64,000 bases of DNA from an uncultured Bacilli bacterium (GCA_947629325.1 CANRDE010000002.1:785-64784), one strand, 5' to 3'. Counted from the stretch's first letter, positions 7,457-63,739 are shown. Program-made: numbers and translations. Notes: a model not told the origin generated them from the sequence alone.

Positions 7457-7473
7457 ATATTTACCTCATTTCA

Positions 7474-12840: not shown

Positions 12841-12951
12841 ATTTTTTCCCTTTTATAAAATTATATATAACAAAATTAGTGACCAAGTTCATTCGCCATT
12901 TATTATTTAAAATCTTAATCCAATTTCCAACATCCAATTTTGACATAAACT

Positions 12952-15512: not shown

Positions 15513-15515
15513 AAA

Positions 15516-29300: not shown

Positions 29301-30237
29301 CTGGTTTCATATTACCATTGGTATCGACATTAACATCAGGAATATTATTACCGTCTATATCGACATTAACATCTGGCCAACCATCTTTATTGACATCACA
29401 GTTAAGATCACACTTACCATCTTTATTAGTATCTCTATTACTTAAATTGCGATCTGGTTTACCATCACCATTAACATCTACATTAATATCGGGAATATAA
29501 TCATGGTTGTAATCAATATTTAAATCTGCTACTCCATTTTTATCAGTATCAATATTGATATCTGGTTTACCATCACCATCCATATCAATATTCAAATCTG
29601 GTAAATTATCCCCATTTAAATCACAATTTAAATCACATTTGCCATCATTATTTGTATCTTGATTAATTAAGTTACGATCTGGCTTACCATCAGTTTCTGC
29701 CTCAATATCTATATTATTATCTCCATCAGTATCAAGACCATATCTTTTATCTAAATTATTATCTATATTAAAATCGGGAATTCCATCACCATTCACATCA
29801 ATATTAATATCAGGAATTCCGTCACCATTAATATCAATATTAATATCTGGTAAGTTATTACCGTTAGTATCAATGTTTAAATCAGCTTTACCATCACCAT
29901 TAATATCTATATTATAATCGGGATGATTATCTTTATCAGCATCACAATTTAAATCACATTTACCATCATTATCAGTATCTTGATTTATAAAATTTTTATC
30001 TGGTTTTGAATCACCATTTAAATCCAAGTTAAATCGAGGAGTTTTCTTATCTTTTCCATAAGTAATATTAATATCTGGTAAACCATCACCATCAATATCA
30101 ATATTGACTCTTGACCTAAAGCCTCCCACTTCAAATATATAATAAGAAAGGATTAATATTAAACACAATATCATTATTATTAACATAATAACGATAGACA
30201 TTAATCTTTTTCTTTGTTTTTTATTTTGTACTTCCAT
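26365..30237 (-). CDS. giant membrane-anchored hyper-acidic repeat protein (DxDxDG-type Ca-loop array with C-x3-C pairs, plus a non-repetitive C-terminal beta-rich domain)
   Basis: Uninterrupted 1290-aa ORF. N-terminus is KKQRKR followed by one TM helix. Residues ~45-1090 are 12-residue D/N/G/P units. There are 14 C-x-x-N-C-D motifs and 8 AET[DN]G markers. A DDDDD run precedes the ~195-aa C-terminal domain. Confidence 0.85.
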   Translation of the reverse strand: MEVQNKKQRKRLMSIVIMLIIMILCLILILSYYIFEVGGFRSRVNIDIDGDGLPDINITYGKDKKTPRFNLDLNGDSKPDKNFINQDTDNDGKCDLNCDADKDNHPDYNIDINGDGKADLNIDTNGNNLPDINIDINGDGIPDINIDVNGDGIPDFNIDNNLDKRYGLDTDGDNNIDIEAETDGKPDRNLINQDTNNDGKCDLNCDLNGDNLPDLNIDMDGDGKPDINIDTDKNGVADLNIDYNHDYIPDINVDVNGDGKPDRNLSNRDTNKDGKCDLNCDVNKDGWPDVNVDIDGNNIPDVNVDTNGNMKPDLNIDTNSDGKPDINIDIDGDNKPDYNIDTSVDKETDIDTNGDGKNDVKAETDGKPDKNKLNQDTNKDGRCDLNCDINNDNIPDVNIDTNGDGKPDVNVDTDKNGVPDLNIDYDHDLNPDINVDTDDDGKPNKNLTNQDTDGDGKCNLNCDVNKDGWPDVNVDIDGDGKPDVNVDNNGNMKPDLNIDTNSDGKPDINVDVNGDGKPDINIDTNVDKNMMIDTNGDGKKDVEAETDGTPDKNIVNQDTNKDGRCDLNCDIDGDNIPDVNIDTDGDKRCDVNCDINGDLVPDYNIDINDDLKPDINIDANNNMLPDLNIDTDNNGVPDINIDIDKDGKPDVNVDTQVDHNMGLDTNGDGNPDIDAETDGIPDKNKTNQDTNKDGKCDLNCDVNKDGYPDVNVDIDGDGNPDINVDTDGNMKPDLNIDTNSDGKCDLNCDTNGDKKPDLNVDRNVEKNIEIDTNGDGKKDVEAETDGKCDLNCDVNGDGNPDINIDTNNDSIPDINIDTDNNGLPDLNIDTNGDKKPDINIDTNGDNKPDVNVDTTPIPNISIDTDGDGDPDVKAETDGKADKNVDTNGDGQPDLNIDTNNDGKCDLNCDVNGDGNPDTNIDTNNDSIPDINIDTDNNGLPDLNIDTNGDKKPDINIDTNNDRKPDLNIDVTKVPNMDIDTDGDGLPDVKAETNGECDLNCDVNGDGNPDVNIDTNKDGKCDLNCDTNKNGLPDLNIDTNGDKKPDINVDVDGDGDADLNIDTTPEPNIDIDTDGDGDPDVKAETDGIPDKNIDTNGDGICDKNCDDKPPHETDDDDDKVDALITVMNTSNVNLYIKREDMLKDKVGDSEYIELESNKSRSKVSLQSYADITRCTYEATFTTIKNTFENRHRDGTLKEQLILQINGFEENNNNMIPKVYRLDLVEIKNKEYKLGTFTIENNVKTNSITDQNWDVKLLFRNYRNYDQTINAGKSLEGNLKFSVIACERIKEG
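26970..30100 (-). repeat. in-frame nested tandem repeats (36-nt units inside ~0.35-0.55 kb super-repeats)
   Basis: For example, 27381-27540 and 27729-27888 differ at about 5 positions over ~160 nt (348-nt offset). Copies at ~28733 and ~29278 share ggaattagtatcaatatttaagtctggtttcatattaccatt. Confidence 0.85.
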
Positions 30238-40736: not shown

Positions 40737-41717
40737 TTAATTTTCTATATGATTTATTATATAACTAGTACTGCTAATATTACCCACGGTATCTTTAACG
40801 CAGATTAAATAATTTCCGTTAGCACTTACTATAAATTTATTATTACTTTGATACTTATTTAAAATACTATTACTGGTACATAAAGTTCCTGAAGGAACAA
40901 TTCCCATAAAATATTCCTTAATTCCGGATCCATTACCATCGCTAGCTTCAATGGTTACTTCTTTAGTTTTAGTATTAACAAATTTATTAGAAACTTTTAT
41001 TTCATTTTCATAAATAACCGGACTCTCATTATCTATTTTTAAATTAACTATCTTATTATATCTTTTTATTTCTTTACTTTCTCCATCTAAAACTATGTAT
41101 TCAAAACTATATCTTGTTTGTAATATTCCTTTTATATCGTCTATTAAAATATTACTAACTCCGCTTTTGCTCGCCCCACTACTACTATGCCATAAACATT
41201 TACTACTACTACAATCAATATTTACAGTATTACTAAATGCACTTAAAGAAACTGTTCCTTTTAACCAAGCATTGGTATTTAATACGGAGGCTCCATTATT
41301 TATAATATCAATATTAATATCTTCATTATAATTATTTAGTTTTTGGGAATCACATTCACCATTTGCTTCATAACTTTCCCCATCAATAAATTGAGCGGTA
41401 TAATAATTTTTCTCTTTGGTCATTTCCACTAAATAACAATTCATTTTCATGTTATTTAAAGGGTCAATTATACTATCATCATCATCGCTATCTAAGTAGC
41501 CATTTTTAATAAGAGTATCAACAAAAACTAAAGTTTCTTTAGTATCATAAGCATATTTAGCTGCCGCAATTTCGATATTATTTATAATACTTTTTCGATG
41601 ATTTTCTCTTATTTTATTGGCAAAAATACTAATATTAGGAATTAAAAGGGCCATAAGTAAAGACAAAATGGCTATTGTCGCTAATAATTCAATTAAGGTA
41701 AACCCTTTATTATTCAT
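40737..41717 (-). CDS. large type IV pilin-like protein with an extended C-terminal (Ig-like?) region
   Basis: 326 aa. Begins MNNKG/FTLIELLATIAILSLL. AGGTGA RBS. A TTGAAT-17-TAAAAT promoter-like element lies at ~41735-41765. Confidence 0.75.
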   Translation of the reverse strand: MNNKGFTLIELLATIAILSLLMALLIPNISIFANKIRENHRKSIINNIEIAAAKYAYDTKETLVFVDTLIKNGYLDSDDDDSIIDPLNNMKMNCYLVEMTKEKNYYTAQFIDGESYEANGECDSQKLNNYNEDINIDIINNGASVLNTNAWLKGTVSLSAFSNTVNIDCSSSKCLWHSSSGASKSGVSNILIDDIKGILQTRYSFEYIVLDGESKEIKRYNKIVNLKIDNESPVIYENEIKVSNKFVNTKTKEVTIEASDGNGSGIKEYFMGIVPSGTLCTSNSILNKYQSNNKFIVSANGNYLICVKDTVGNISSTSYIINHIEN

Positions 41718-49552: not shown

Positions 49553-51349
49553 TTATTCTTCTATTTTTTCAAATTGGCTATTATAAAGTTCTGCATATTT
49601 ACCATTTAATTTCAATAATTCTTCATGAGTACCTGTCTCTACTATATTGCCTTCTTGCATCATTAGAATTAAATCAGCATTTTTGATTGTTGATAATCTA
49701 TGAGCAATTATAAATGAAGTTCTTCCTTCCGTTAATTTATCCATAGCTTTTTGAACTAGTTCTTCTGTTCGGGTATCAACACTACTTGTTGCTTCATCTA
49801 AAATCAAGAATGGAGCATCTTTAATCATTCCTCTAGCAATAGTTAATAATTGTTTTTGCCCTAAAGATAAAGAATCATTATCAGTTAAAATAGTATTATA
49901 TCCTTGGGGTAATGATTTTATAAAATGATGAAGCCCTACTATTTTACAAACTTCTTCAATTTTGGCATCAGATACATTTTCTTTATTATATTTGATATTT
50001 TCCTTAATAGTTCCTTCAAAAACCCAAGTATCTTGTAAAACCATAATGAATAAATCATGAATATTTTGACGAGATAATTCTTTAGTTGAAATTCCATCTA
50101 TTTTAATATCACCATCTTTAATGTCATAAAATTTCATCAGTAAATTAACCATGGTGGTTTTGCCTGCTCCTGTTGGACCAACTATTGCAATCTTTTCGCC
50201 CGGTTTTACCTTAACATTAAAATCTTTGATAATTATTTTATTGTCATCATAGCCAAATTTAACATGATTAAATTCTATTGCCCCTTGGACACTATCTTTA
50301 TTTAAAGTTTCTTTAATTTGATCCTCTTTTCCCATTTCTTCTTCCGCTAAGAATTCAAAAACTCTTTCACTGGCAGCCGCACAAGATTGTAAACTAGAAA
50401 AAGATTGTGCTATTTGTGATAATGGTTGAGTAAATAAACGTACATACAACATAAAAGCAACAATAACTCCAAAATCTATTACATTATTCATGGTTAAAAG
50501 AGCGCCAACTATACAAACACAAACATAACCAAAATTACTAATAAATCCCATAAAAGGATGCATCAATCCAGATAAAAATTGACCTTTACGAACATTTTCA
50601 TATAAGCGTTCATTAATTTCATCAAATTTATTATTTGCTTCAGCAGTTCCATTATATACTTTAACAACATTATGCCCTGCATACATTTCTTCGATATGGC
50701 CATTTAAATTTCCTAGTTCATCTTGCAATCTTTCAAAATACTTTTGACTCTTGCCAATAACAGCAAACATAAATACAAATCCTATTATACTAGAAGCCAT
50801 AGCAGTTAAAGCCATAATTCCATTAGTTATTATCATCATAAAAATAGAGCCAATTAATAAAGTTATCGAACTAACTAATGTTCCGAGACTTTGATTCATA
50901 GTCATACTTAAAGTATCAACATCGTTAGTTACTCGCGAAAGAATATCACCATAACTATTTTTATCAAAATATTTAAGAGGCATATTATTTATTTTTTCAC
51001 TAATTTCTTTTCTTAATTGTTTAGAAAATTTATTAGTTACTACGGCCATAATATATTGTTGCAAATAACCAAAAATGGCACTAATAAAATAAATGGTTAA
51101 TAATAATAAAGATATTCTTTTAACTTTATCCATATTAATACCAGTTAATAAACCATTAGTAATTAAATTGGTAATATCCCTTAGTTTATCAGGACCAATT
51201 ATAGATAAAATAGAACTAAACATTGCTAAGACAACAGCAATAAAAATTGGAATAATGTAAGGTCTACAATATTTAATTAGACTAAGCATAGATTTTTTAA
51301 AATCTTTAGCTTTTTCATTGTTGTTGCGATTTCTTCTTCCTGGATGCAT
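49553..51349 (-). CDS. ABC exporter, fused permease/ATPase (heterodimer subunit B)
   Basis: 598 aa. A 6-TM domain is followed by GPTGAGKTT, LSLGQKQ and ILDEATS. Confidence 0.9.
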   Translation of the reverse strand: MHPGRRNRNNNEKAKDFKKSMLSLIKYCRPYIIPIFIAVVLAMFSSILSIIGPDKLRDITNLITNGLLTGINMDKVKRISLLLLTIYFISAIFGYLQQYIMAVVTNKFSKQLRKEISEKINNMPLKYFDKNSYGDILSRVTNDVDTLSMTMNQSLGTLVSSITLLIGSIFMMIITNGIMALTAMASSIIGFVFMFAVIGKSQKYFERLQDELGNLNGHIEEMYAGHNVVKVYNGTAEANNKFDEINERLYENVRKGQFLSGLMHPFMGFISNFGYVCVCIVGALLTMNNVIDFGVIVAFMLYVRLFTQPLSQIAQSFSSLQSCAAASERVFEFLAEEEMGKEDQIKETLNKDSVQGAIEFNHVKFGYDDNKIIIKDFNVKVKPGEKIAIVGPTGAGKTTMVNLLMKFYDIKDGDIKIDGISTKELSRQNIHDLFIMVLQDTWVFEGTIKENIKYNKENVSDAKIEEVCKIVGLHHFIKSLPQGYNTILTDNDSLSLGQKQLLTIARGMIKDAPFLILDEATSSVDTRTEELVQKAMDKLTEGRTSFIIAHRLSTIKNADLILMMQEGNIVETGTHEELLKLNGKYAELYNSQFEKIEE

Positions 51350-51350
51350 T

Positions 51351-53120
51351 TTATTCGCCCCCTAAATCTTTCTCTAACTCACTACTAGATAATTGGGATA
51401 AAGCTATTTCTTTATAAATATTGCATTTTTGCAATAATTCTTTATGCGTTCCCATCCCAACTAATTTGCCTTCATCTAAAACTAAAATTTTATCAGCATC
51501 TTTTATAGTCCCAATTCTTTGGGCCACAATTAAATTAGTAGCATCTTTTGTATATTTTTTTAATTCTTTTCTTAATTTAAAATCCGTTTTATAGTCAAGA
51601 GCACTAAAAGAATCATCAAAAATATAAATTTCTGGTTCCCTTGCTATGGCTCGAGCTATAGAGATTCTTTGTTTTTGTCCTCCCGATAAATTAGTACCAC
51701 TTTGAGCAACATCCGATTCGTATTTTTGAGGCATTTTCTCTACAAAATCTTTTCCTTGCGCAACTTCAATAGCTTCTTTTATTTTATCTTTATTAGGTTT
51801 TTGGTGACCATTATCACCATAAGCAACATTTTCATTAATAGTCCCTCTAAATAAAACAGCCTTTTGAGAAACATAACCTAAAATATTATTTAAAGATTCC
51901 AATTTGTAGTCTTTAACATTAACCCCATCAACTAGAATTTCCCCTTCAGAAGCATCATAAAACCGCGGGATTAAATTTATTAATGTACTCTTACCACTCC
52001 CCGTTGAGCCAATAAAAGCTATAGTTTCTCCTCTATTAGCTTTAAAAGAAATGTTTTCTAACACATATTCTTCAGCGTCAGGATATTTAAAAGACACATT
52101 CTTAAATTCGACTGTTCCTACTTCTTTTCCTTTAATAATATTACCATCTTTTATTTTTTCCTCCGTATTTAAAACTTCTAAAATTCTCTTAGCAGAAACA
52201 GCAGCTCTAGGATAAATAATAAATATCATAATAAGCATCATAAATGACATTAATACTTGCATTGCATAAGAAGAAAATACTACCATATCGCCAAAAAGAG
52301 TTATTTTATCTAACATATTGGCTTTTTCAATCAACAAAGCACCGATAAAATAAATAGAAAGAGACAATGTAGACATAACTAAACTCATAACAGGCGATAA
52401 TATTCCCATCGTTTTTTGGTTAAATAATTGCAGATTTTTTAATTCTTCGTTAGCATTTTCAAATTTCTTTTGTTGATATTCTTCGGCATTAAAAGCTCTA
52501 ATAACTCTAATTCCTGTTAAATTTTCTCTGGTTATTCTATTTAAGTTATCAGTTAATTTTTGCACAATTTTAAACTTAGGAAATACTAACATCATAAGAA
52601 TAATAATCGTAATTAATAGCACAACTACACCACTAGCAGTAGCAATACTCCAAGTAAAATTTTTACCTAATATTTTCACTATGGCCCAGGTCGCCATAAT
52701 AGGGGCCTTAATCATCGCTTGAAGACCCATTCCAATTAACATTTGCACTTGAGTTACATCATTAGTTGTTCTAGTTATTAGACTACTTGTTGAAAATAAT
52801 TTAATCTCTTCGGTACCAAAGGCACCAACTTTTTCAAAAACTGATTTACGAGTGACCTTCCCAAAATAAGCAGCAACATTTGCAGCAAAATAGCCGACAA
52901 CAAAAGAGGCAATTAAGCTACCAAAAGCGCATAAAATCATATAGCCGCCCTCTTTTAATATGCTGCTCATTTTACTGCCTTCTGTTTGCACTAAAATAGT
53001 AATTTCTGACATATAATCAGGTATTTTTAATTCTAAATAAACGTTAATAGATATAAAAATTACACATATAAAAGCATATAATAATTCTCTTTTACCCATT
53101 CTCTTTAATAATTTATACAT
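51351..53120 (-). CDS. ABC exporter, fused permease/ATPase (heterodimer subunit A)
   Basis: 589 aa. Contains GSTGSGKST, LSGGQKQR and IFDDSFSALD. Lies 1 nt from its partner gene. Confidence 0.9.
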   Translation of the reverse strand: MYKLLKRMGKRELLYAFICVIFISINVYLELKIPDYMSEITILVQTEGSKMSSILKEGGYMILCAFGSLIASFVVGYFAANVAAYFGKVTRKSVFEKVGAFGTEEIKLFSTSSLITRTTNDVTQVQMLIGMGLQAMIKAPIMATWAIVKILGKNFTWSIATASGVVVLLITIIILMMLVFPKFKIVQKLTDNLNRITRENLTGIRVIRAFNAEEYQQKKFENANEELKNLQLFNQKTMGILSPVMSLVMSTLSLSIYFIGALLIEKANMLDKITLFGDMVVFSSYAMQVLMSFMMLIMIFIIYPRAAVSAKRILEVLNTEEKIKDGNIIKGKEVGTVEFKNVSFKYPDAEEYVLENISFKANRGETIAFIGSTGSGKSTLINLIPRFYDASEGEILVDGVNVKDYKLESLNNILGYVSQKAVLFRGTINENVAYGDNGHQKPNKDKIKEAIEVAQGKDFVEKMPQKYESDVAQSGTNLSGGQKQRISIARAIAREPEIYIFDDSFSALDYKTDFKLRKELKKYTKDATNLIVAQRIGTIKDADKILVLDEGKLVGMGTHKELLQKCNIYKEIALSQLSSSELEKDLGGE

Positions 53121-53268: not shown

Positions 53269-54006
53269 TTATTTTTTAGCAACTATTTTACTTTCTCCTG
53301 TCTTATAATCTATTTCAATACCATCTTGGACATTATAGACATAAATATTAAATTTAATTCCTTCTCCTTTATCTTCAATAGAATAACCTTCCATTTGAAC
53401 TCCACTTGCCACTAAATTATTATCTTCAAAAATTGGAGTTACTCTATATAAAACGTGATTATTAGTAGTTTTAATATAATCAGCTACTTTATTTTCATAC
53501 TCTAACATAACGCCAGTATTCATTTGTCTTGTACAGGTTATTAAATTTTGAGGATTAGCATTTTCACCAGTTAATTGATAGCCAATCAAATGACATCTAT
53601 TATATAAATATTTTCCTTCTACATTATCATATTTAACCGTATGCCAACCACTCGGTTTTATCATGCCAATACTTCCGCGCTCTTCGGTAGGCATTAACTC
53701 TTTCCCAATTTTTGCTAAAGCCACTCCACAACGATCTAAAATATCCAATTTACTATAATTCTCAAAATCCGCATCATCATATAAATCTTCATTAAAATTG
53801 GGCTCATTATTGTTAATAATAACAAAAGCTTGCCCATCATAAACAGGAATTTCCTCCATACTATAAGATTTTTGAGGAAAAAGATATTGATTAAGAAATC
53901 CTTTTATTTCCGTTTGAAAATTATAATAAATAGCTATTAAAACAATAAATAGCAAAACTACTAATATATTATTCTTCTTTTTTCTTTTGGCCATAATTAA
54001 CTTCAT
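53269..54006 (-). CDS. membrane-anchored DNA/RNA non-specific endonuclease (DNA-entry nuclease type)
   Basis: 245 aa. An N-terminal anchor (KRKKK plus TM) is followed by YNRCHLIGYQLTGENANPQNLITCTRQMN, the motif remembered from the Endonuclease_NS_2 / EndA-NucA-like family. Confidence 0.7.
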   Translation of the reverse strand: MKLIMAKRKKKNNILVVLLFIVLIAIYYNFQTEIKGFLNQYLFPQKSYSMEEIPVYDGQAFVIINNNEPNFNEDLYDDADFENYSKLDILDRCGVALAKIGKELMPTEERGSIGMIKPSGWHTVKYDNVEGKYLYNRCHLIGYQLTGENANPQNLITCTRQMNTGVMLEYENKVADYIKTTNNHVLYRVTPIFEDNNLVASGVQMEGYSIEDKGEGIKFNIYVYNVQDGIEIDYKTGESKIVAKK

Positions 54007-54543
54007 CGTTTTCCTTCCCTATTTTTAATTTTAATCTTTTGATATTATTTTCATTATCTTCTTTAAAAATATCATGAAATCCAAATTGGTAAAACAAGAG
54101 AAATTTTAAAAGGGTTAAATTTTGTTCTTTTAAACCCATTAAATACCAATCAATTTTTTCCTTATTGTTTAAATTAAAGGTTTGCAAAAATTTAATTCTA
54201 TCAAAATCACTACTATTTTTGATAATATTAATTACTATATCTCGCGTTAAAAATTTATTAATGGTAATTTCCTCTACTGCATACATGTCATAATAACCAT
54301 AATATTCATCATCAAATTTTGACATGTTTCCCGACCCGTTACTTCTGCTATACATATATCTTCCGTTAGATATTCATAATATCTAAAAACATCAGCCAAA
54401 TGAGTACATAAATGAAATCCATATCCCCAAGGACCAAATTTAACTTCTGATTGAGAAATTTGATAAGTTTGACCTTCTTCAAAATGCATACCATAACGAT
54501 TTGTTTGATCAATATTAAAAGCTTTATAACCTTTTACTTCCAT
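53969..54543 (-). pseudogene. frameshifted gene (two overlapping ORFs, 54274..54543 and 53969..54355)
   Basis: The N-frame reads ...DICIAEVTG and then runs into nonsense (RETCQNLMM..). The frame one step back reads SGNMSKFDDEYYGYYDMYAVEEITI... A single -1 shift near 54334 (acgggtcggg) joins them into one ~190-aa product. Confidence 0.55.
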
Positions 54544-54601: not shown

Positions 54602-54946
54602 CTATTGCTTGTTAGTAGCAGCAATAATTTCTTCATATAATTTTTGCTCTTCGTCTATTTCTTGTTTATATTTATTGATTGATTCTTCATAGTCTTTAAT
54701 AGTAGCTTCTAAATTATTTATTTCGTTTTGCCATTCTTCTGCACTTAAAGAATTTACCATAGCTTTTTCTAATTTTTCCTGTGCTGTTTCTAATTCTTTT
54801 TCTTTTTCTTTTAACTTACTATTTAAATTTTGTTCTTCTAAATAATCTCTATAATTTTTATATAATTTGATTACTTCTTTATATTGAAAAGATAAAGCTA
54901 CAATAAAACTAATTAATAAAATTATCACCATGTTTTTAATTTTCAT
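54602..54946 (-). CDS. small TM-anchored coiled-coil protein
   Basis: Start is placed at MKIKNMVIILLISF. The ORF-track start at 55003 overlaps the upstream gene by 68 nt. One TM is followed by an E/K-rich heptad region. Confidence 0.5.
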   Translation of the reverse strand: MKIKNMVIILLISFIVALSFQYKEVIKLYKNYRDYLEEQNLNSKLKEKEKELETAQEKLEKAMVNSLSAEEWQNEINNLEATIKDYEESINKYKQEIDEEQKLYEEIIAATNKQ

Positions 54947-55949
54947 AATATAATGCTCTCTTTCCAAATAAATTATACATTTTTTCAAATTGTTGTTTTT
55001 CATAATACTCTATTTTACCAGTATAAGGGTCAGAAACAATTATATTTTTATAATCATAGCCAAAAATAACCATACTATGCAAATCGCAAATCCATTCAAC
55101 TTTTTCCTTTGTATCTTCGTCAAGCCAACTAGTACAAACTGAAGTATCTTTTAAATTGATAGATGCCCAAACTTGTACTGGTTTATTTTCTTTAACTAAT
55201 TTTAAAATATCACCTAGTGATGTTCCCGTTTTATCAATCACACCACTTTTAAAATGCTCAGCCGTTTGTATTATAGGCTTTTCATACACGCCATAGCCAC
55301 TATATAATCTTGGATCACCTACAAATTCTCTTTCCGGATTTCCGCCATAACGAACCCCATTCACATAAAATGGACTACTTCCCATAGGTAAAATATCAAT
55401 TATTTCCGGCATAGTAACTTTAACCCCATTATATGTCAATAAAATCCACAAGGCTACACTTTCACAACCATTAGGATAATCTGGATATTGATGATAAGTT
55501 GGGGCATTATTAATAAGATGGGAAGTTTGGGCATATAAATCATCATATTTTTTCTTTAAATCGTTAAAAGTATCAGTTACACTTGTTAATTCTTGATTTT
55601 TAATACTTATATCATTATTCAATTTTTGATATTCATTTAGATAAGCTTCTCTTTCTTCCGCATTTAAATTACTATTTCCTTTATAATTTTTCTCTGCTTT
55701 GTTTATTTTCTGGATTTGCTCATCTATGTTAGAAATTTCTTCCTCTAAACGAGAATTCTCTTGGCCATTTACAAACTTCGAATTATAATACTGGATAAGA
55801 GGCTTAGTTAAGAAATTAGCCCAACAAATTGTAAGTATTAATATAATTAACATTGCAATTTTTTTATATTGCGGCCGGATTTTTTTAGCAATAATATATA
55901 AATAAATTATTAAGATTAAAAAGCTTACTATTAAAATAGTATTTAACAT
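54936..55949 (-). CDS. membrane-anchored Peptidase_C39_2 (YvpB/BtrH-like) cysteine peptidase-fold protein with a coiled-coil linker
   Basis: 337 aa with two N-terminal TM helices and a coiled coil. QYPDYPNGCESVALWILL is the catalytic Cys motif, followed by ..LHSMVIFGYD..VSDP (His/Asp). The start overlaps the asnB stop by 7 nt. Confidence 0.65.
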   Translation of the reverse strand: MLNTILIVSFLILIIYLYIIAKKIRPQYKKIAMLIILILTICWANFLTKPLIQYYNSKFVNGQENSRLEEEISNIDEQIQKINKAEKNYKGNSNLNAEEREAYLNEYQKLNNDISIKNQELTSVTDTFNDLKKKYDDLYAQTSHLINNAPTYHQYPDYPNGCESVALWILLTYNGVKVTMPEIIDILPMGSSPFYVNGVRYGGNPEREFVGDPRLYSGYGVYEKPIIQTAEHFKSGVIDKTGTSLGDILKLVKENKPVQVWASINLKDTSVCTSWLDEDTKEKVEWICDLHSMVIFGYDYKNIIVSDPYTGKIEYYEKQQFEKMYNLFGKRALYYEN

Positions 55950-57784
55950 ACTTCACCATTGCTTTCAAAGAACACTTCATACCAAATTATAAACATTAAA
56001 ACATTATATATTTCATGCATATGAGATATTTTGGTGTGATAATGTTCATCTAGTAATTGATTTAAATATGTTACATTAAAGAAATCTTTTACAAAAGGTT
56101 TATTAAACTTTTCTTTAACATAATTATAATACTTTGGTTCTCTAATCCATTTACTAAAAGGAACGGGAAAGCCAAGCTTTCTTCTATTTGCCCATTCTTC
56201 TGGTAATTCTTGATGAGCAATAGCTCTAAATAAATATTTAGTCTTTTTGTCTTTTATCCAAAATTTAGAAGGGATTTTTTTAGAGTAATTAAAAACATCT
56301 ATATCCAGTAAAGGAACCCTTAATTCTAAAGAATTAGCCATAGCCATTTTATCAGCTTTTAATAAAATATCTTCTGGTAGCCAAAAATGCATATCAATAT
56401 ACATTTTTTGCGTAACATCATCACAATCTTTGACCTCATCAATTAAAGGTTTAATAATATCTTTTAAACTTTCATCAGTTCTTAAGTTAGGATTTAATAA
56501 CTTATTAGCTTCTTCTTCTGACAAAGAAGAACCATGACCAATATATCTTTCATATAAAGGTTTACCATATTTTATTAAAGTATTTTGCCCTGGAAAATGA
56601 GGTAATGGTTTAATTACTTTGGCTACCCATTGGCGAATAAATAAAGGAATTTTAGTATAAATTTTTAAAATTACCGGCTCATAATATTCGTTATAGCCCC
56701 CAAACATTTCATCACTTCCCTCACCCGATAAAACCACTTTGACTTCTTGACTAGCTAGCTCGGATAAAAAATATAAAGGTACAGTAGAAATATTAGCATG
56801 AGGTTCATCAGTATGATACATAATAGTTGGTAAAATATTAAAAAATTCCTCACTACTGATATGTTTACGATAATTTTTAATTTTTAAGATATGTGATAAC
56901 TCTTGGGCCATTTTGGTCTCATCAAATCCTTCAATATCAAAACCAACACTGAAAGTTTTATCAGGTTTAGCTACACTTACTACATAAGAAGAATCGACTC
57001 CCCCGGAAAGATAAGCCCCTACTTCCACATCACTAGTGATTTGATGATATTTTACGGATTCTTTTAAAACTTTTTGTAATTCTTCTTTATAATAATTAAA
57101 ATCTTTTGGCTCTTTAGGATAATTTATTTTAAAATATTCTTGGGTTTTAAACTTACCATTTTGATACTTAAAAAAAGTTCCTGGTTTTAACTTATAAACA
57201 TTTTTAAAAAAAGTTTCATTATGAATAGAATATTGGAAGATCAAATACATTTTTAAAGCTTTAGTATTAACTTCTTTATGAAATTGAGGATGTTCTAAAA
57301 AAGATTTTATCTCGCTACCAAATAAAAATGCATCATCTGTTAAATAATAATAAAATGGTTTGATACCAAAATAATCTCTCGCCCCAATTAATTCTTTAGT
57401 TTTTAAATCATATATAACAAAAGCAAACATTCCTCTTAGTTTAGAATATAAATCATCTTGATATTCTTCATAACCATGTAGGATAACTTCTGTATCGGTA
57501 TTAGTACGAAATTTATGTCCTTTTTTTAATAAATCTTCTTTTAATTTTTCATAATTATAAATTTCCCCATTAAAAATAATAACTTTGGATTTATCTTCAT
57601 TAAAAATAGGTTGTTTTCCACTATTAATATCAATTATGGAAAGACGCCGATGACCTAAAGCAATGTAGGAATCAGTGAAATATCCTTCATCATCGGGACC
57701 ACGATGAATAATTCGATCCGCCATTTTTTTAATAATTTGCTTTTTATTTTTATCTTTACTAATAAAACCTGTGATTCCACACAT
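55943..57784 (-). CDS. asnB: asparagine synthetase B-family glutamine amidotransferase (copy 1)
   Basis: 613 aa. MCGITGF gives the Cys2 nucleophile. LSGGVDSS is the PP-loop. Also contains EGSDEMFGGY. Confidence 0.85.
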   Translation of the reverse strand: MCGITGFISKDKNKKQIIKKMADRIIHRGPDDEGYFTDSYIALGHRRLSIIDINSGKQPIFNEDKSKVIIFNGEIYNYEKLKEDLLKKGHKFRTNTDTEVILHGYEEYQDDLYSKLRGMFAFVIYDLKTKELIGARDYFGIKPFYYYLTDDAFLFGSEIKSFLEHPQFHKEVNTKALKMYLIFQYSIHNETFFKNVYKLKPGTFFKYQNGKFKTQEYFKINYPKEPKDFNYYKEELQKVLKESVKYHQITSDVEVGAYLSGGVDSSYVVSVAKPDKTFSVGFDIEGFDETKMAQELSHILKIKNYRKHISSEEFFNILPTIMYHTDEPHANISTVPLYFLSELASQEVKVVLSGEGSDEMFGGYNEYYEPVILKIYTKIPLFIRQWVAKVIKPLPHFPGQNTLIKYGKPLYERYIGHGSSLSEEEANKLLNPNLRTDESLKDIIKPLIDEVKDCDDVTQKMYIDMHFWLPEDILLKADKMAMANSLELRVPLLDIDVFNYSKKIPSKFWIKDKKTKYLFRAIAHQELPEEWANRRKLGFPVPFSKWIREPKYYNYVKEKFNKPFVKDFFNVTYLNQLLDEHYHTKISHMHEIYNVLMFIIWYEVFFESNGEVC

Positions 57785-57790
57785 TTATAA

Positions 57791-58996
57791 CTACCTCCAA
57801 TAACTATTTTTGTATTCTTTATAATAGTTAAACCATCTTTTTCTAAGCATTAAAAATCTTTTAAAATTTTTATCACAGGGAGCGTCCATCGGTTTAATAA
57901 CATTTTTCCACATCTTTAAAGCTTCTTTTTTAAAAATTTCGTTTTGAATATATTTTTTTACTATACCTTTAGGCACAAACGAAAGCAATACTTTTTTATC
58001 TAAAAAAACAAACTCATGTTGCTTTTTATTTATTAAATCATCAACTAAAACTTCAACTAAATTTTTACCTAGCTTGGCCACATAGTAACTGCTTCGGCCT
58101 TGTCTTGCGTTTATTTCTAATACTTTAAAAGTGTTATCTTTAGGATCGTATTTCATATCAACTTCCGCAAAGCCACGGTAATTAATATTTTCCATAAATT
58201 CTTTTAATATTTTTACTTGTTTTTTTACATCTCCCTTAATTGTATTAAAACCATTTATTAAGACAGCAGCATTTCCTACCATGCTTTTAGTTCTTTCTTG
58301 CAAACCAATTTGAGCAAAACTGATAAATTCTACTTTACCTTTAGTATTGACATAGAGAACTGCATCAAATAAATTATCATCACCACCGGCAATAAATTCT
58401 TGAATAATGACTTTATCATTATAACCACCATTTTTAATTAAAGATAAAGTATTAAGAAGTTCTGTTTCATTATTAATCTTATATATTTTATTTTTGCCCT
58501 CAAATTTTAAATGATTATATGTAACGACATTAGAAGGTTTTAAAACAAGGGGATAAGTTAAATTTGTCGTATCTAATTTAGCATCTAAATTATAATATAT
58601 TGTTTTGGGAAAAGATAGTTTATTATTGGCATATTTTTTATAAAAATTTTCTTTATTAGTTAAACTCATAATAACGTCTAAATCAGGAACATTGAAAAGA
58701 AAATCTTTAGCTAACTTGGTTTGATTTTTACTAATAAATTCTGTATATGTTTCATTTGTACTTATTAGTAATATCGGCTCATTGTGTTCTTTTTTAAATT
58801 TAGCTAAAATTTTTAAAAATCCTTTTTCATTCCAGATATCTTCTTCATAAGTAATATGAAGTATATTACTATAACTAGTAAATGATAAAGGAGCTCGCCC
58901 AATTAAGTAAGGCTTTTTCTTTAAAAATTCATAACAACATCTTGCCATATAATAAGCATTAGGATCACTTCCTAAAATTAATACTTCCAAATTCAT
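57791..58996 (-). CDS. ATP-grasp carboxylate-amine ligase (COG3919 / D-aspartate-ligase-like)
   Basis: 401 aa. Contains LILGSDPNAYYMARC, YPLVLKPS, IIQEFI.G and VLEINARQGRS. Confidence 0.7.
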   Translation of the reverse strand: MNLEVLILGSDPNAYYMARCCYEFLKKKPYLIGRAPLSFTSYSNILHITYEEDIWNEKGFLKILAKFKKEHNEPILLISTNETYTEFISKNQTKLAKDFLFNVPDLDVIMSLTNKENFYKKYANNKLSFPKTIYYNLDAKLDTTNLTYPLVLKPSNVVTYNHLKFEGKNKIYKINNETELLNTLSLIKNGGYNDKVIIQEFIAGGDDNLFDAVLYVNTKGKVEFISFAQIGLQERTKSMVGNAAVLINGFNTIKGDVKKQVKILKEFMENINYRGFAEVDMKYDPKDNTFKVLEINARQGRSSYYVAKLGKNLVEVLVDDLINKKQHEFVFLDKKVLLSFVPKGIVKKYIQNEIFKKEALKMWKNVIKPMDAPCDKNFKRFLMLRKRWFNYYKEYKNSYWR

Positions 58997-59008
58997 TACT
59001 AATCCTTT

Positions 59009-60184
59009 CTAATATTTAACTATTTTTTCTTTTCCCTTCTCTTGATGAATTCTTACCACTCTAGTTGTAATCATGTTAAACAAATGATAACTATTTGTAT
59101 TCAAAGTTCTCATTACTTCATTAAGCGAAATATGATTACCAAATATTTCTACCTGATCATTTATTTTAACTTTATCATCAACTAAAACCATTAACATATC
59201 CATCGTTTCACTAACTATTTCATATTTTTTATTATTAATAGAAACCCATCTAAATTTTTTAGTTACTCCGTCTGCATAACCAATAGGAATGGTGGCAAGA
59301 TAGCCATCATTTTGTATTTCATATTCAGCGTTATATCCGACTTTCTCCCCTTTTTTTACTTTTCTTAAGGCCAAAACTTCCGTATATAAACTAAAAGCAG
59401 TTTTTAATTTTAAATCTTGAGAAATAGAAGGACTAATATGATGCCATTTTAAATAAATATTTCTTTTTATTTTTCTTAAATGACCTTTTAAACTAGTATC
59501 AATATTAATATGATTATCAAAACCATACATCATTATCCCTAACCGGACTCCCGTCACATATTTCGGCCTTTTATGTCTTACTAAAGTAATACTGCGATCA
59601 AAATGAATAATAGGTATTTTAGCCAAATCAATATTTTGCAACATATCATATATTTTATTTAATTGTTTATCATAATAAATATCATAATAACCACTTGTTG
59701 CAAAATGAGTATAGATTCCTTCTAAAAAAATATTATCATGCTCACAAACTATTTTATAGGCTTCTTCTAAATCAATTTTATTTTTGAAACCAAGACGATT
59801 CATTCCTGAATCTATTTTAAAATGAACTTTTAAATTGAATTTATTATTTAAATTAACTATTTCTTTTAAATAGTCTACACTTTCAATTGTTAAAGTTAGA
59901 TTATTTTGCCAAGCAATTTTAACATGTTCAATATTAATTGGTTCTAAAATAAGAATGGGAACATCTTTATATAATGATCTTATTTCTAAGGCTTCGTCTA
60001 AACTAGAAACCGCTAAATAATTAATGCCTCCTTTTAATAACGAAGAAATAACATTTATCCCATGATGATAGCAATTATTTTTTACTACTCCAATATAATA
60101 TTGGTATTTAAATGTGGTTGTTATTTTGTGAACATTTTCTTCTAAAATATCATTATTAATTAAGGCATAAGTTTTTCGATACAA
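59009..60184 (-). CDS. alanine-racemase-fold (PLP fold type III) amino-acid racemase, divergent active-site motif
   Basis: 391 aa. GVVKNNCYHHG sits where the canonical motif is VVKANAYGHG. Also contains IDSGMNRLG and PIGYADG. Confidence 0.7.
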   Translation of the reverse strand: MYRKTYALINNDILEENVHKITTTFKYQYYIGVVKNNCYHHGINVISSLLKGGINYLAVSSLDEALEIRSLYKDVPILILEPINIEHVKIAWQNNLTLTIESVDYLKEIVNLNNKFNLKVHFKIDSGMNRLGFKNKIDLEEAYKIVCEHDNIFLEGIYTHFATSGYYDIYYDKQLNKIYDMLQNIDLAKIPIIHFDRSITLVRHKRPKYVTGVRLGIMMYGFDNHINIDTSLKGHLRKIKRNIYLKWHHISPSISQDLKLKTAFSLYTEVLALRKVKKGEKVGYNAEYEIQNDGYLATIPIGYADGVTKKFRWVSINNKKYEIVSETMDMLMVLVDDKVKINDQVEIFGNHISLNEVMRTLNTNSYHLFNMITTRVVRIHQEKGKEKIVKY

Positions 60185-60199
60185 TTTAATCCCCTCACT

Positions 60200-62029
60200 T
60201 TAAGCTTTTTTTTTATCTAAGAAAAATACTTCATACCATTTTAAAAAGGTATATATAGCCCATACTTTTTTATACGTGTCATGATCTTCTTTATGACATT
60301 TATTCAATAATTTAAGAATATAATCTTGATTGAAAAATAATTTAGCATGTTCACTTTTGAATGTTTTAGTTATTTCTTTTTGATATTCTTTTAAATTAAT
60401 CCAAGATCTTAGCGGAACCGGAAACCCTAATTTTTTCTTTTTATACGCCTCAGTAGGAATACTTTTTTTAGCGGCCTCTCTTAACGCTACTTTAGTATTT
60501 TCTTTGGTTACTTTCATATCCATTGTTAAAGAACTAGCCAAAGAAAATACTTCTTTATCAATAAATGGTACTCGTAATTCTAAAGAATTGGCCATACTCA
60601 TCCGATCAGCTTTTTGAAGAATATCTTTAACCAACCAAAAGTTAATATCGATTGCTTGCATTTTTATTAGATCATTTTTATTTTTATATTTTTGAAAAAT
60701 ATCTTTAGTTAAATCTTTATTTTTAATTTTACTAGTAAAATTAAGAACTTTTTGACATTCTTTATCACTAAAAACACGACTCATTCCAATATAATTATCT
60801 TCTAATTTCATTCCTCTTCGCACTAAAAAATTACGGCCTCTAAATTCAGGTAAAAAATTTAATATTAACGCTATGGCATGTCTAATAAAATAAGGAATTT
60901 TATTATAGAAATTCATATCAATTGTTTCGCGATAAGTATTATATCCTCCAAAAAATTCATCAGCACCCTCACCCGATAATACTACTTTTATATCTTTGCT
61001 AGCTATTTCCGAAAGAAAATATAAGGCAATAGCAGCTGGATCACTAATTGGTTCATCCATATGATACATAATTTTAGGAACAATTTTTAAATATTCTTTT
61101 TCATTAATTTTGCGATCAACATTTTCAATTTTTAATTTAGAAGCTAAATCTTTTGCATAATTGGTTTCTGTATATTTAGGAATATCATACCCTACCGTAT
61201 AGGTTTTATTAGGTTTAGCCAAAGCAACAATATATGAAGAATCAATTCCGCTTGATAAATATGATCCTACTTCTACATCACTTTCTAAGTGATGTTTTAC
61301 TGAATCCTTCATAACTTCATCAATTTTTTGAGCTGCTTCTGCCAAATTTAATTTTTCTTCTTGAAAATCTATTTCATAATATTTTTGTAAAGTTATTTCA
61401 TTATTTTCATATATTAAAGAATAACCCGGATCTAAACGATAAACATTTTTAAAGAAAGTTTCCGTAGTTGGCGTAAAACTAAAGGTTAAATATGGTCCTA
61501 ATAAATCTTTGTTAAATTCTTTTACAAAATCAGGGTGTTCTAAAAAAGATTTAATTTCACTGGCAAACATAAAAGTATTATTAAATTGGCAATAATAAAA
61601 AGGCTTAATTCCAAAATTATCGCGACTACAAAATAAAATCTTTTTTTTCTTATCATAAATGGCATAAGCAAACATTCCTCTTAACTTTTTAGGTAAATCA
61701 TAACCAAATTCCTCATAACCATGAACTAAAACTTCTGTATCAGTTGTCGTTTTAAATTGATGTTTTTTGGCCACTAATTCGTTTTTTAATTCTTTATAAT
61801 TATAAATTTCCCCATTAAAAACGACTACAACATCCTCCGTTTCATTAAAAATAGGTTGCTTTCCATTATTAAGATCGATAATAGATAAACGGCGATGTCC
61901 TAAGGCAATAAAGTCATCCACATAATACCCTTCATCATCGGGACCACGATGAATAATCCGGTCAGCCATTTTTTTAATTATTTTCTTTTTATTCTTTTGT
62001 GAATTTACAAATCCCACAATTCCACACAT
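60200..62029 (-). CDS. asnB: asparagine synthetase B-family glutamine amidotransferase (copy 2)
   Basis: 609 aa. Contains MCGIVGF, the PP-loop variant LSSGIDSS and EGADEFFGGY. It is clearly paralogous to copy 1 (shared KKMADRIIHRGPDDEGY, HRRLSIID). Confidence 0.85.
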   Translation of the reverse strand: MCGIVGFVNSQKNKKKIIKKMADRIIHRGPDDEGYYVDDFIALGHRRLSIIDLNNGKQPIFNETEDVVVVFNGEIYNYKELKNELVAKKHQFKTTTDTEVLVHGYEEFGYDLPKKLRGMFAYAIYDKKKKILFCSRDNFGIKPFYYCQFNNTFMFASEIKSFLEHPDFVKEFNKDLLGPYLTFSFTPTTETFFKNVYRLDPGYSLIYENNEITLQKYYEIDFQEEKLNLAEAAQKIDEVMKDSVKHHLESDVEVGSYLSSGIDSSYIVALAKPNKTYTVGYDIPKYTETNYAKDLASKLKIENVDRKINEKEYLKIVPKIMYHMDEPISDPAAIALYFLSEIASKDIKVVLSGEGADEFFGGYNTYRETIDMNFYNKIPYFIRHAIALILNFLPEFRGRNFLVRRGMKLEDNYIGMSRVFSDKECQKVLNFTSKIKNKDLTKDIFQKYKNKNDLIKMQAIDINFWLVKDILQKADRMSMANSLELRVPFIDKEVFSLASSLTMDMKVTKENTKVALREAAKKSIPTEAYKKKKLGFPVPLRSWINLKEYQKEITKTFKSEHAKLFFNQDYILKLLNKCHKEDHDTYKKVWAIYTFLKWYEVFFLDKKKA

Positions 62030-62084
62030 AAAGAATACCTCTTTCTTTTATCTTTCCTACTTGTTAATTATAACATAAAGGGAA

Positions 62085-63539
62085 TTAATTTCCTATATCT
62101 TTGTTAATCTTAATATCATTATTACTTGGACCTTTAATGCATTTTCCTTCTATATCGAACCGAGAAGCATGGCAAGGACAATCCCAAGTTTTATCAATTG
62201 GATTAAAAATTAAGCTGCATCCCATATGAGGACATTTATTAGAAACAATATATTTTTTATTTACATCATTATATATTGCAACGTTTTGACCTTTAATTTT
62301 TTGAAATTTTATATTGGCGGAATACCATTTTTTATTTTTAGCTATTTTATTTTGAATAAAACTTTTAAGATTACTACTTATATTGCTTAAATATTCTTTG
62401 CAATATTTTAAACTATTGGTTCTTAAGGGGCTAAATAATTTAATAAATTCATTATCTTGATTTAAAATAATATCGCTTAATATTTTACCAGCTAAAACCC
62501 CATTTGTCATACCCCAAGTATTATAACCAGTCGCAATTAATAAATCATTATTCTTCTTTTTTATAGAGCCAATATAAGGCATACCATCTAGAGTCATTAA
62601 ATCATCATTTTTCCAAATATATACAGGATTATAACCCTGCTCCTTTGTTTTAGAAATAATCTCTGCAAAATTCTTTTTTTCATTTAAATTATCACTTATT
62701 TTACTAGAATTATTTAAATATAAAATGTATTCTAAATAATCTTTATGATATCTTATTGATTCACACTTTTTAACAGGAGTGATCATACTTTTATTTTTAT
62801 ATTTGGCTAAAGATGCGGTTATATAAGATTTTTCAACATAAGTTTTTAAAGGCAAGCCAAAGGGGAAAACAAAATAAGGATAATGACAAGCTAAAATAAT
62901 TTTAGTAGCTAATATTTTATGGTTTTTAGTTTGACAAATATAGTAATCATCCTTTTTATTTATTTGTAAAATTTTAGTTTTTTCATAAATTTCTTTTCCC
63001 GAATTTTGACATGTCTCTTTAAGACCAAGTATAAATTTTAAAGGATGAAAAACATAGGTATCTACTACATAAATAAAATTATCTTGCGAAAAAGTTTTTA
63101 TTCCTAAATCTTCTAATATGTTTTTTTCTTTATTTATCTTTTTTAATTCCTCTTCATTTTGGGCATAAAGATAAGAATTTACTTTTTCCAAATTACAACT
63201 AATTTTCTCTTTTTTGATTATTTTGGTAATTTCCTCTATAGCAACTTTTTGAGAATCTAAATATAATTTAGCCACATCTAAAGAATATTTTTGCTCTAAA
63301 TCTTGATAAATTGTTTGTTGTAAATATGTTATTTTGCCGGTTGATTTTCCTGTTATGCCATTACCAACTAAATTACTTTCTACTAAACAAACTTTTTGAT
63401 TAGTATTTTTTAGATAATATAATGTTGAAAGCCCTGTTATTCCTCCTCCTATAATTAAAATATCCACTTTTAAATCTTGGTTTAAAACTTTATAATTAGG
63501 AGTGGAAATATTATCAAGCCATATACTTTTCTTTTTCAT
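62085..63539 (-). CDS. FAD-dependent oxidoreductase fused to a C-terminal Rieske [2Fe-2S] domain (YhfW-like)
   Basis: 484 aa. Contains the DILIIGGGITGLST dinucleotide fold and the Rieske motif CPHMGC...CPCHASRF. Confidence 0.8.
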   Translation of the reverse strand: MKKKSIWLDNISTPNYKVLNQDLKVDILIIGGGITGLSTLYYLKNTNQKVCLVESNLVGNGITGKSTGKITYLQQTIYQDLEQKYSLDVAKLYLDSQKVAIEEITKIIKKEKISCNLEKVNSYLYAQNEEELKKINKEKNILEDLGIKTFSQDNFIYVVDTYVFHPLKFILGLKETCQNSGKEIYEKTKILQINKKDDYYICQTKNHKILATKIILACHYPYFVFPFGLPLKTYVEKSYITASLAKYKNKSMITPVKKCESIRYHKDYLEYILYLNNSSKISDNLNEKKNFAEIISKTKEQGYNPVYIWKNDDLMTLDGMPYIGSIKKKNNDLLIATGYNTWGMTNGVLAGKILSDIILNQDNEFIKLFSPLRTNSLKYCKEYLSNISSNLKSFIQNKIAKNKKWYSANIKFQKIKGQNVAIYNDVNKKYIVSNKCPHMGCSLIFNPIDKTWDCPCHASRFDIEGKCIKGPSNNDIKINKDIGN

Positions 63540-63630: not shown

Positions 63631-63739
63631 ACCGGAGATACTATCTCGTCAGGTCGATAGTTAGGATACGATTATTTTAATTAAGTGTATTGTAAATACA
63701 CCGTCCTAACTGGAAAAAGCCATATAAATGGCTTTTTTC
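63631..63739 (+). ncRNA. candidate small structured RNA (~109 nt) ending in an intrinsic terminator
   Basis: The predicted TSS is ~63631. Hairpin A is ACTATC/GATAGT (63640-45 / 63656-61) with loop UCGUCAGGUC. The long hairpin is TTAGGA..TCCTAA (63661-66 / 63704-09) enclosing GTGTATT-gta-AATACAC (63685-63701). CCGG (63632-35) can pair with CTGG (63710-13). The terminator is AAAAAGCCAT-ataa-ATGGCTTTTTT (63714-63738). No ORF is present. Confidence 0.45.

Follow-up and report, generated by a model that had tools for sequence, protein, structure and literature searches.

We analyzed a 64-kb stretch of DNA from an uncultured Bacilli bacterium (hereafter the window; G+C ~25%), in which seven consecutive open reading frames (ORFs) on the minus strand fill positions 54602-63539. 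ORF calling on the window gave the genes listed below in their order of transcription, separated by coordinates by 55, 15, 12 and 6 nucleotides (nt) and then by two overlaps; order, domains and spacing all agree with a first-pass annotation of the same DNA. That annotation had read the seven genes as one pathway for the construction and amidation of a noncanonical peptidoglycan side chain. Comparison with related loci gives a smaller unit. The conserved unit is three genes, encoding an alanine-racemase-fold racemase, an ATP-grasp ligase and the amidotransferase AsnB-1 (hereafter the cassette), and the seven genes are not one unit. Lengths are in amino acids (aa), and FAD and PLP denote flavin adenine dinucleotide and pyridoxal phosphate.

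62085..63539, minus strand: FAD (DAO family) oxidoreductase with a C-terminal Rieske domain, 484 aa (Pfam DAO, Rieske)
60200..62029, minus strand: AsnB-2, glutamine-dependent amidotransferase, 609 aa (GATase_7 and Asn_synthase)
59009..60184, minus strand: alanine-racemase-fold (PLP fold type III) racemase, 391 aa, TTG start (Ala_racemase_N and Ala_racemase_C)
57791..58996, minus strand: ATP-grasp carboxylate-amine ligase, 401 aa (weak NCBIfam and PDB matches; fold from an AlphaFold model and Foldseek)
55943..57784, minus strand: AsnB-1, glutamine-dependent amidotransferase, 613 aa (GATase_7 and Asn_synthase)
54936..55949, minus strand: membrane-anchored coiled-coil protein with a C39-like cysteine peptidase domain, 337 aa (Peptidase_C39_2)
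54602..55003, minus strand: small coiled-coil protein with a single transmembrane segment, 133 aa as the longest ORF (ORF call)

Conservation of the racemase-ligase-AsnB trio

The locus set came from a scan of one genome per species, from which the best 80 loci were taken at species level, and synteny was assessed by tblastn of the window proteins against all loci together with an ORF-level count. In 66 of the 70 loci that could be judged, the gene immediately upstream of the ligase is the racemase (median gap 10.5 nt), and in 52 of 65 the gene immediately downstream encodes an AsnB (median gap 4 nt). This downstream AsnB is the AsnB-1 orthologue, since the protein after the ligase in locus L005 is 70% identical to AsnB-1 and 50% identical to AsnB-2. 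Because the core order is found again in dozens of species, with proteins 41-74% identical to those of the window and the ligase itself falling as low as 41%, the arrangement is not a product of chance. The reading of seven genes as one pathway does not survive the same comparison: the FAD/Rieske gene accompanies the cassette in none of the 80 other loci, AsnB-2 in only four or five and the C39-like peptidase in two. The synteny check suggested by the first-pass annotation was therefore borne out for racemase, ligase and AsnB-1 and not for the full array.

All 80 loci are from metagenome-assembled genomes of uncultured gut Bacillota, labeled by their submitters as Bacilli, Tenericutes or Firmicutes and, for the distant ones, as Acutalibacteraceae, Lachnospiraceae or Clostridia. 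A few loci carry odd labels (Muribaculaceae, Saccharibacteria, Ignavibacteriales), which are probably binning or labeling errors; one such locus has sporulation genes. The distribution is wide and vertical, spanning two classes of gut Bacillota, and the identical locus was found on several ENA metagenome contigs. More than 1,400 ligase homologues are present in the database; of the best 120 listed, nearly all are metagenome proteins without a name, and JGI automatic annotation labels some of these "D-aspartate ligase". No cultured carrier with a known wall chemotype was found among the best 120 listed matches of two protein searches or among the best 80 loci, and no description of the cassette was found in the searchable literature.

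The three genes might have no joint function, with a housekeeping alanine racemase and an asparagine synthetase flanking an unrelated ATP-grasp enzyme. Both flanking proteins do exceed their NCBIfam cutoffs (alr and asparagine synthase), and unrelated genes are often tightly packed in reduced genomes. We nevertheless regard this explanation as highly improbable, because gene order and spacings of 4-10 nt are kept at 41-74% protein identity in two classes, the racemase is a divergent paralogue that occurs alongside a canonical alanine racemase (Alr), parallel cassettes with a nonhomologous racemase exist in Subdoligranulum variabile and Bacillus mycoides, and ligase-racemase fusions are found.

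The three enzymes and the D-aspartate pathway

The closest described counterpart of the cassette is a D-aspartate pathway in which RacD supplies D-Asp, AslA or Aslfm activates it as beta-aspartyl phosphate and attaches it to the L-Lys of the precursor, and AsnH amidates the alpha-carboxyl of the attached D-Asp (PMC4155827, PMC10829024, PMC13631041). The RacD-Aslfm/AslA-AsnH system of E. faecium, Lactococcus lactis and lactobacilli thus has the same three activities that we predict here, likewise in one genetic module. Our cultured references were chromosome fragments deposited as plasmids, from L. curvatus, L. crispatus, L. fermentum, S. variabile, C. aerofaciens and Listeria. Their gene orders vary: aspS, a 233-aa Asp/Glu-type racemase and the ligase in L. 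curvatus; asnB and then the ligase in L. crispatus; and the ligase, an Asp/Glu-type racemase and an AsnB 49% identical to AsnB-1 in S. variabile. A ligase, an Asp/Glu-type racemase and an AsnB also stand together at 5956-9810 of the conjugative B. mycoides megaplasmid pl546 (L092), where the ligase and AsnB genes seem frameshifted. The window ligase is homologous end to end to the ligases of this module (28-32% identity), and AsnB-1 is 43-50% identical to its amidotransferases. The differences are that the window racemase has the PLP-dependent Alr fold whereas RacD is a cofactor-independent enzyme of the Asp/Glu type, that the ligase falls in a separate clade, that the gene order is racemase-ligase-AsnB, and that all carriers are uncultured. 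As far as sequence comparison can tell, the cassette is a parallel version of the known module, with a distinct ligase lineage and a racemase nonhomologous to RacD.

The ligase has no Pfam match, and its NCBIfam and PDB ATP-grasp matches are weak. An AlphaFold (AF2) model built from 34 homologues (pLDDT 90.3, pTM 0.89) retrieved only ATP-grasp enzymes (ligases and carboxylases) among its top 50 Foldseek matches in the PDB, at probability 1.00 and TM ~0.5-0.6, and the modeled structure confirms a three-domain ATP-grasp fold. E294 and N296 (in the motif LEINARQ), K153 and K170 are invariant across the ligase family alignments; by analogy only, the E-x-N motif and the two lysines would bind Mg and ATP. 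Identity to the ligases of Lactobacillales and S. variabile is 28-32% over 95-98% of the length (29.4% over 98%, tblastn E 3e-42, for the racemase-linked ligase of L. curvatus; 31.7%, E 3e-50, for the asnB-linked ligase of L. crispatus). In a neighbor-joining (NJ) tree of 219 ligases, all 75 Alr-linked sequences fall in one clade of 85 tips, and every racD-linked or racD-fused ligase falls outside it. The linked racemase is of the Ala_racemase_N/C type in the window and in 66 of 70 related loci, and an Alr-fold partner defines the clade as a whole. The precedent of Aslfm that had been invoked for the ligase accordingly holds as full-length homology to ligases paired with racD or asnB and fails as orthology: the window ligase appears to belong to a sister clade of the Asl-type D-aspartate ligases and not to the same orthologous clade.

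Members of the wider ligase family are fused to Asp/Glu racemase or to FemAB bridge-building domains, which speaks for the branch proposed below, and DegT/DnrJ-type sugar aminotransferase fusions also occur among its relatives. Individual fusions of FemAB and DegT/DnrJ types, and once of a response-regulator receiver domain, were seen in relatives P0154, P0245, P0178, P0192, P0254 and P0169. The family is thus predicted to have further roles beyond this cassette.

The first-pass annotation was right to assign the racemase to the alanine racemase fold rather than the Asp/Glu type, given its Ala_racemase_N and Ala_racemase_C domains. The protein scores 227.9 bits on TIGR00492 (cutoff 168), and its best PDB matches are Bacillus-type Alr (E 4e-44), with lysine and broad-spectrum racemases at E 1e-11 to 1e-12. 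It shares with Alr/DadX and with the VanT serine racemase the two-domain fold, the catalytic Lys and Tyr, and the PLP-binding residues. In a comparison of 72 cassette racemases against the Geobacillus enzyme and six canonical Alrs from the same loci, we found the equivalents of K39, Y43, K129, R136, H166, S204, R219, Y265, M312 and Y354 kept in 62-72 of the 72. What distinguishes the cassette enzymes from Alr/DadX is a replaced middle layer of the substrate entryway, which we take to be formed by D171, R290, R309 and I352: of the 72 members, 71 have G in place of D171 and 56 have D or E in place of R309, all have N, S or T at the I352 position, and R290 is mostly K. In addition, N203 is replaced by R or K and G86 by E, and an insertion of ~25 residues follows the MYG strand throughout the family. 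Read for substrate, the active site therefore presents an Alr-like catalytic shell with entryway changes that are mixed in charge. In six Clostridia loci a second, canonical Alr is encoded 3.5 kb downstream in the same operon-like array, and this coexistence argues for a substrate other than alanine. Judged from these alignments, the cassette racemase is a distinct, specialized paralogue of Alr with intact catalytic residues and a changed entryway.

An Alr-fold racemase and an ATP-grasp ligase also occur together in VanC-type clusters. The cassette racemase departs from VanT in keeping the Tyr354 equivalent, and the window ligase matches models of Ddl and Van-type ligases only at E ~1e-3. A Van-type D-Ala-D-Ser resistance module was rejected on both counts, since the ligase does not resemble Ddl and the Tyr354 position lacks the Asn specific to VanT.

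The two AsnB paralogs noted in the first-pass annotation are both present and 49% identical; AsnB-2 accompanies the cassette only in five related loci (L009, L015, L016, L029 and L062; 52-67% identity). Both proteins keep the equivalents of Cys1, R49, N74, G75, E76, the SGGxDSS loop (PP-loop), E348, K429 and K449, and both lack the TTIR segment of E. coli AsnB, to which they are 29-31% identical. With their Cys1 glutaminase and PP-loop they are of the same long AsnB type as AsnB1 of Lactiplantibacillus plantarum, LtsA of Corynebacterium and AsnB of Bacillus and Listeria. In an NJ tree without support values, which left out the characterized AsnH (L. lactis), AsnB1 (L. plantarum) and LtsA (Corynebacterium), AsnB-1 orthologues cluster with the AsnBs of S. 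variabile, C. aerofaciens, L. crispatus, L. curvatus, Planococcus and Sporosarcina, apart from the metK-linked AsnB of Listeria and B. cereus (Bacillus) and from E. coli AsnB. AsnB-2 forms a small clade of its own and may be an accessory paralogue of the closest relatives, serving a second amidation or ordinary asparagine synthesis. AsnBs that are 43-50% identical to AsnB-1 adjoin wall genes in cultured species: the S. variabile protein is encoded beside the ligase, that of Collinsella aerofaciens beside murE and that of L. curvatus beside murC. The species that share the cluster of AsnB-1 presumably have D-Asp or D-Glu bridges. This clustering tentatively favors a reading in which AsnB-1 amidates an alpha-carboxyl that is free on the branch, so that the D-amino acid would be dicarboxylic.

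Cell-wall context and proposed function

In relatives, the cassette stands among peptidoglycan precursor genes, which supports the peptidoglycan role first proposed for the locus. A SpoVB/MurJ-like flippase, which matches Polysacc_synt and falls below the SpoVB cutoff, follows AsnB in at least 11 loci, and in six of them a canonical Alr follows the flippase. The cassette is directly followed by murE in L070, L073 and L084, and by a diaminobutyrate-2-oxoglutarate transaminase (above NCBIfam cutoffs) together with murE in L094, L071, L074, L075 and L077. In L082 the gene after the ligase encodes a Mur ligase with Mur_ligase_M and _C domains, 30% identical to MurE of L094, and an arginase-family gene lies beside it. 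Further genes nearby in relatives are murB, SpoIID, an M23 peptidase, MreB and a MraY-like gene. Taken together, these recurring neighbors point to the cytoplasmic steps of precursor synthesis, specifically to position 3 and the side chain. Proximity to murE is a feature that the cassette of several relatives has in common with L. plantarum asnB1, which encodes a meso-diaminopimelate amidotransferase and co-localizes with murE (PMC4155827); in the tree described above, AsnB-1 groups away from the metK-linked AsnB of Listeria and B. cereus.

The EctB-type transaminase and murE, at 11021-13737 in L094 and at about 11100-13900 in L071, L074, L075 and L077 (all labeled Lachnospiraceae), suggest L-2,4-diaminobutyrate at position 3 of the stem peptide in those uncultured Clostridia, and the arginase-family gene beside the Mur ligase of L082 suggests ornithine at the same position. 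In the window itself, a scan of the 64 kb for murE found none. Its genes for a GH25 muramidase, for an LCP protein and for enzymes resembling TagF and LtaS indicate that the organism is walled. For RF39 and related orders, a diaminopimelate-type wall with missing steps has been predicted from genomes (PMC10868615), and the walled state of the window organism agrees with predictions for RF39-like bacteria (PMC10868615).

The first-pass annotation had named a dapdiamide-like pathway as its main alternative, and the pairing of an AsnB-like protein with an ATP-grasp enzyme is indeed known from such pathways. The ligase shares the ATP-grasp fold with the dapdiamide enzymes DdaF and DdaH and with BL00235, RizA and BacD, and BL00235 (3vot) is its best PDB match by both sequence and structure; identity to these enzymes is nevertheless just 12-18%, the cassette has no conserved association with genes for biosynthesis, export or immunity, and its neighborhoods are of the cell-wall kind. 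An N-acetylglutaminylglutamine amide operon was rejected, the scores on its amidotransferase model being 358-364 against a cutoff of 570 and no GNAT fusion being present. Taken more broadly, the product could be a small peptide in amidated form, whether of the dapdiamide type or a compatible solute resembling N-acetylglutaminylglutamine amide, or a decoration of a wall glycopolymer. In favor of such products are a pair of ABC exporters found 1.5 kb downstream of the array in the window, the DegT-type sugar aminotransferase fusions of ligase relatives, and a flippase that matches Polysacc_synt and misses the SpoVB cutoff. We consider these products distinctly improbable. Among the 80 other loci, only L050 has the exporters beside the ligase, no nonribosomal peptide synthetase, immunity or regulator gene is conserved with the cassette, the N-acetylglutaminylglutamine model scores are those just given, and the recurring neighbors include murE, alr and murB. 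A wide vertical spread over two classes of gut Bacillota is also atypical of an antibiotic cluster, and the adjacency of murE, the flippase, alr and the diaminobutyrate or ornithine genes to the trio supports a role in the peptidoglycan side chain and argues against an antibiotic pathway.

The cassette probably equips the stem peptide with an amidated D-amino acid branch, in the manner of RacD-AslA-AsnH and from outside the orthologous group of D-aspartate ligases. This proposal builds on gene content, homologies, synteny and neighborhoods, and from these we infer every substrate and the order of the reactions. The racemase would make a D-amino acid in the cytoplasm. The ligase would activate a carboxyl as an acyl phosphate and join the D-amino acid to a peptidoglycan precursor, most likely at position 3, on the amino group in the side chain of the diamino acid, as with D-aspartate ligase. 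AsnB-1, with glutamine and ATP, would then amidate the carboxyl left free on the added residue, as AsnH does on D-Asp, to give an amidated D-amino acid branch that acts as a cross-bridge. Because the ligase clade is distinct and the racemase fold is different, the added residue may not be D-Asp. We suggest, tentatively, that an Alr-fold racemase with a specificity new for the fold, possibly for an acidic or other non-alanine D-amino acid, acts together with the ligase and AsnB to form an undescribed amidated peptidoglycan branch.

The diamino acid genes near some cassettes raise another prospect, in which the racemase acts on diaminobutyrate, ornithine or lysine to supply a D-diamino-acid bridge as in group B peptidoglycans, with AsnB amidating the free alpha-carboxyl. 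The diaminobutyrate transaminase and murE that follow the cassette in five loci and the arginase-family gene in another would fit, as would the acidic residues gained in the racemase (R309 to D or E, and G86 to E) and the occurrence of Alr-fold lysine and broad-spectrum racemases among its PDB matches. We find this improbable: the diaminobutyrate and ornithine genes more simply supply murE for position 3 and are absent from most loci, including the window, and the racemase is much nearer to Alr (E 4e-44) than to the lysine and broad-spectrum enzymes (E 1e-11 to 1e-12) and has gained a basic residue as well (N203 to R or K).

A further alternative reverses the polarity of the ligation, so that the ligase activates a carboxyl of the stem peptide, for example the D-Glu alpha-carboxyl (position 2) or the one that is free on diaminopimelate, and adds D-Ala or another neutral D-amino acid, whose new C terminus AsnB amidates to a D-aminoacyl-amide. 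D-Ala is a possible product of the racemase, to judge from its intact small alanine pocket and its passing of the TIGR00492 cutoff: K39, Y43, L85, R136, H166, R219, Y265, M312 and Y354 are all conserved. ATP-grasp enzymes can activate either partner, and this polarity would account for an amidotransferase after a ligase that adds a monocarboxylic amino acid. D-Alanine amide and glycine amide on D-Glu were reportedly listed as chemotype variants by Schleifer and Kandler in 1972, which could not be verified in the searchable literature, and a search for D-alanine amide, D-ornithine or ATP-grasp in peptidoglycan gave nothing relevant, including for the D-alanine amide that this alternative calls for. 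It also faces the precedent of the homologous Aslfm/AslA, which activates the free amino acid as beta-aspartyl phosphate (PMC4155827), the canonical Alr in the array of six loci, which would make a second source of D-Ala redundant, and the grouping of AsnB-1 with AsnBs from cassettes with Asp/Glu-type racemases. We therefore hold the reversed polarity to be unlikely.

Several observations weigh against an amidated branch of the RacD-AslA-AsnH kind. About 13 of the 65 loci have no adjacent AsnB, and the trees from which the clades were drawn are neighbor-joining trees without support values. No characterized enzyme falls in the Alr-linked ligase clade, and since all close homologues are from uncultured organisms, there is no wall chemotype to which the cassette could be matched. 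The wider ligase family is not limited to peptidoglycan, as some relatives are fused to sugar aminotransferases. The racemase keeps the residues around the small alanine pocket of Alr, including the Tyr354 equivalent, and passes the NCBI alanine racemase cutoff; were its product D-Ala, joined through its own carboxyl, nothing would be left for AsnB to amidate. Finally, because an asnB beside murE is the arrangement of L. plantarum AsnB1 (PMC4155827), AsnB-1 could amidate position 3 and not the branch.

Peptidoglycan side chains and their amidation affect cross-linking, sensitivity to lysozyme and antimicrobial peptides, the specificity of endolysins, and the muropeptides seen by innate receptors of the host. 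The carriers of the cassette are abundant gut lineages that have never been cultured, whose wall chemistry is known from genome prediction only, and the three enzymes could be expressed and assayed without culturing them. The racemase subfamily could show a new specificity in a well-studied drug-target fold. A non-alanine specificity, if true, would mean a new wall chemotype common to RF39-like Bacilli, Acutalibacteraceae and Lachnospiraceae lineages, joined in some of them with diaminobutyrate or ornithine at position 3. If the added residue is D-Asp, the finding reduces to a nonorthologous replacement of the racemase in a known pathway.

Transcription signals, accessory genes and other features of the window

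Two transcription-related elements were placed on the minus strand at the upstream side of the array.

63714..63738, minus strand: terminator-like hairpin after the DUF3800 gene, AAAAAAGCCATTTATATGGCTTTTT, the upstream limit of the region
62067..62075, minus strand: extended -10 promoter-like element, TGTTATAAT, inside the 55-nt gap

A terminator-pattern scan found no terminator-like hairpin in any intergenic gap of the seven-ORF array, as the first-pass annotation had stated; two minus-strand matches lie within ORFs, and their number equals the expectation from shuffled sequence. Hairpin AAAAAAGCCATTTATATGGCTTTTT lies 3' of the DUF3800 gene and upstream of the first gene of the array, with a fold z of -3.1 against shuffles, and overlaps a match to the Rfam family DUF3800-I on the opposite strand. 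That match (RF02969; 63624-63747, plus strand; 68.3 bits against a gathering score of 44.2) covers the full model length, sits just past the 3' end of the minus-strand DUF3800 gene, which itself runs off the window, and includes the palindromic hairpin. No terminator was found 3' of the last gene (54602-55003), which leaves the downstream limit of the operon undefined.

The element TGTTATAAT lies ~30-35 nt upstream of the AsnB-2 start codon, and TGGTATAAT occupies the equivalent site 5' of AsnB-2 in L015 and L016, where the array starts with AsnB-2. Being a consensus match in AT-rich DNA, TGTTATAAT is a candidate promoter and not functional proof of one. Since this conserved -10 element separates the FAD/Rieske gene from AsnB-2, the former may be a separate transcription unit and, by its position in the sequence, probably lies upstream of the operon promoter. 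The likely arrangement is an operon of six genes with a conserved functional core of three.

The FAD/Rieske protein matches Pfam DAO (99.7 bits) and Rieske (51.7 bits), and all its NCBIfam matches are below cutoff. It adjoins the cassette only in L001-L004, which are the species of the window itself, and is a lineage-specific neighbor without a conserved link to the cassette. The C39-like protein scores 79.8 bits on Peptidase_C39_2 (PF13529; gathering score 24) and matches PDB entry 3erv, a putative C39-like peptidase, at E 6e-20. Two N-terminal hydrophobic segments precede a coiled coil and the peptidase domain, and the lysine-rich loop between the two segments suggests that the peptidase domain faces outside. 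Its orthologues beside the cassette occur only in L015 and L016. The small coiled-coil protein is 114 aa in the gene calls of public assemblies (133 aa as the longest ORF), had no significant family match in Pfam or NCBIfam, and has its sole detectable orthologue in L015, at 38% identity. An extracytoplasmic peptidase with a coiled-coil partner may serve wall remodeling.

Elsewhere in the window, all on the minus strand, a wall-polymer block at 893-14025 encodes a sulfatase-family protein resembling LtaS, a GT4 glycosyltransferase, a 930-aa protein in which an O-antigen-ligase-like membrane domain is fused to a GT2 domain, a glycerophosphotransferase of the TagF kind, an LCP protein, and a glycosyltransferase family 4 (MraY/TagO-like) transferase. 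Predicted surface proteins at 14082-17234 and 26365-30237 include one with SH3_3 and a C-terminal type I dockerin, one with a cadherin-like domain, and one of 1290 aa that has an Ig-like match of low strength; for a Bacilli-like genome that is small and low in GC, the dockerin is unexpected. Immediately past the operon, and not separated from it by a terminator, an 89-aa DUF7666 ORF overlaps a 128-aa ORF in another frame by ~80 nt (53969-54543), and the pair looks like one gene split by a frameshift. The two adjacent ABC exporters (49553-53120; 589 and 598 aa, each a fusion of membrane and ATPase domains) probably have no connection with the cassette. A membrane-anchored DNA/RNA nonspecific endonuclease (Endonuclease_NS_2) is encoded at 53269-54006 and, 12 kb away at 40737-41717, a protein with a type IV pilin N-methylation motif; the two may be remnants or parts of a DNA-uptake apparatus.

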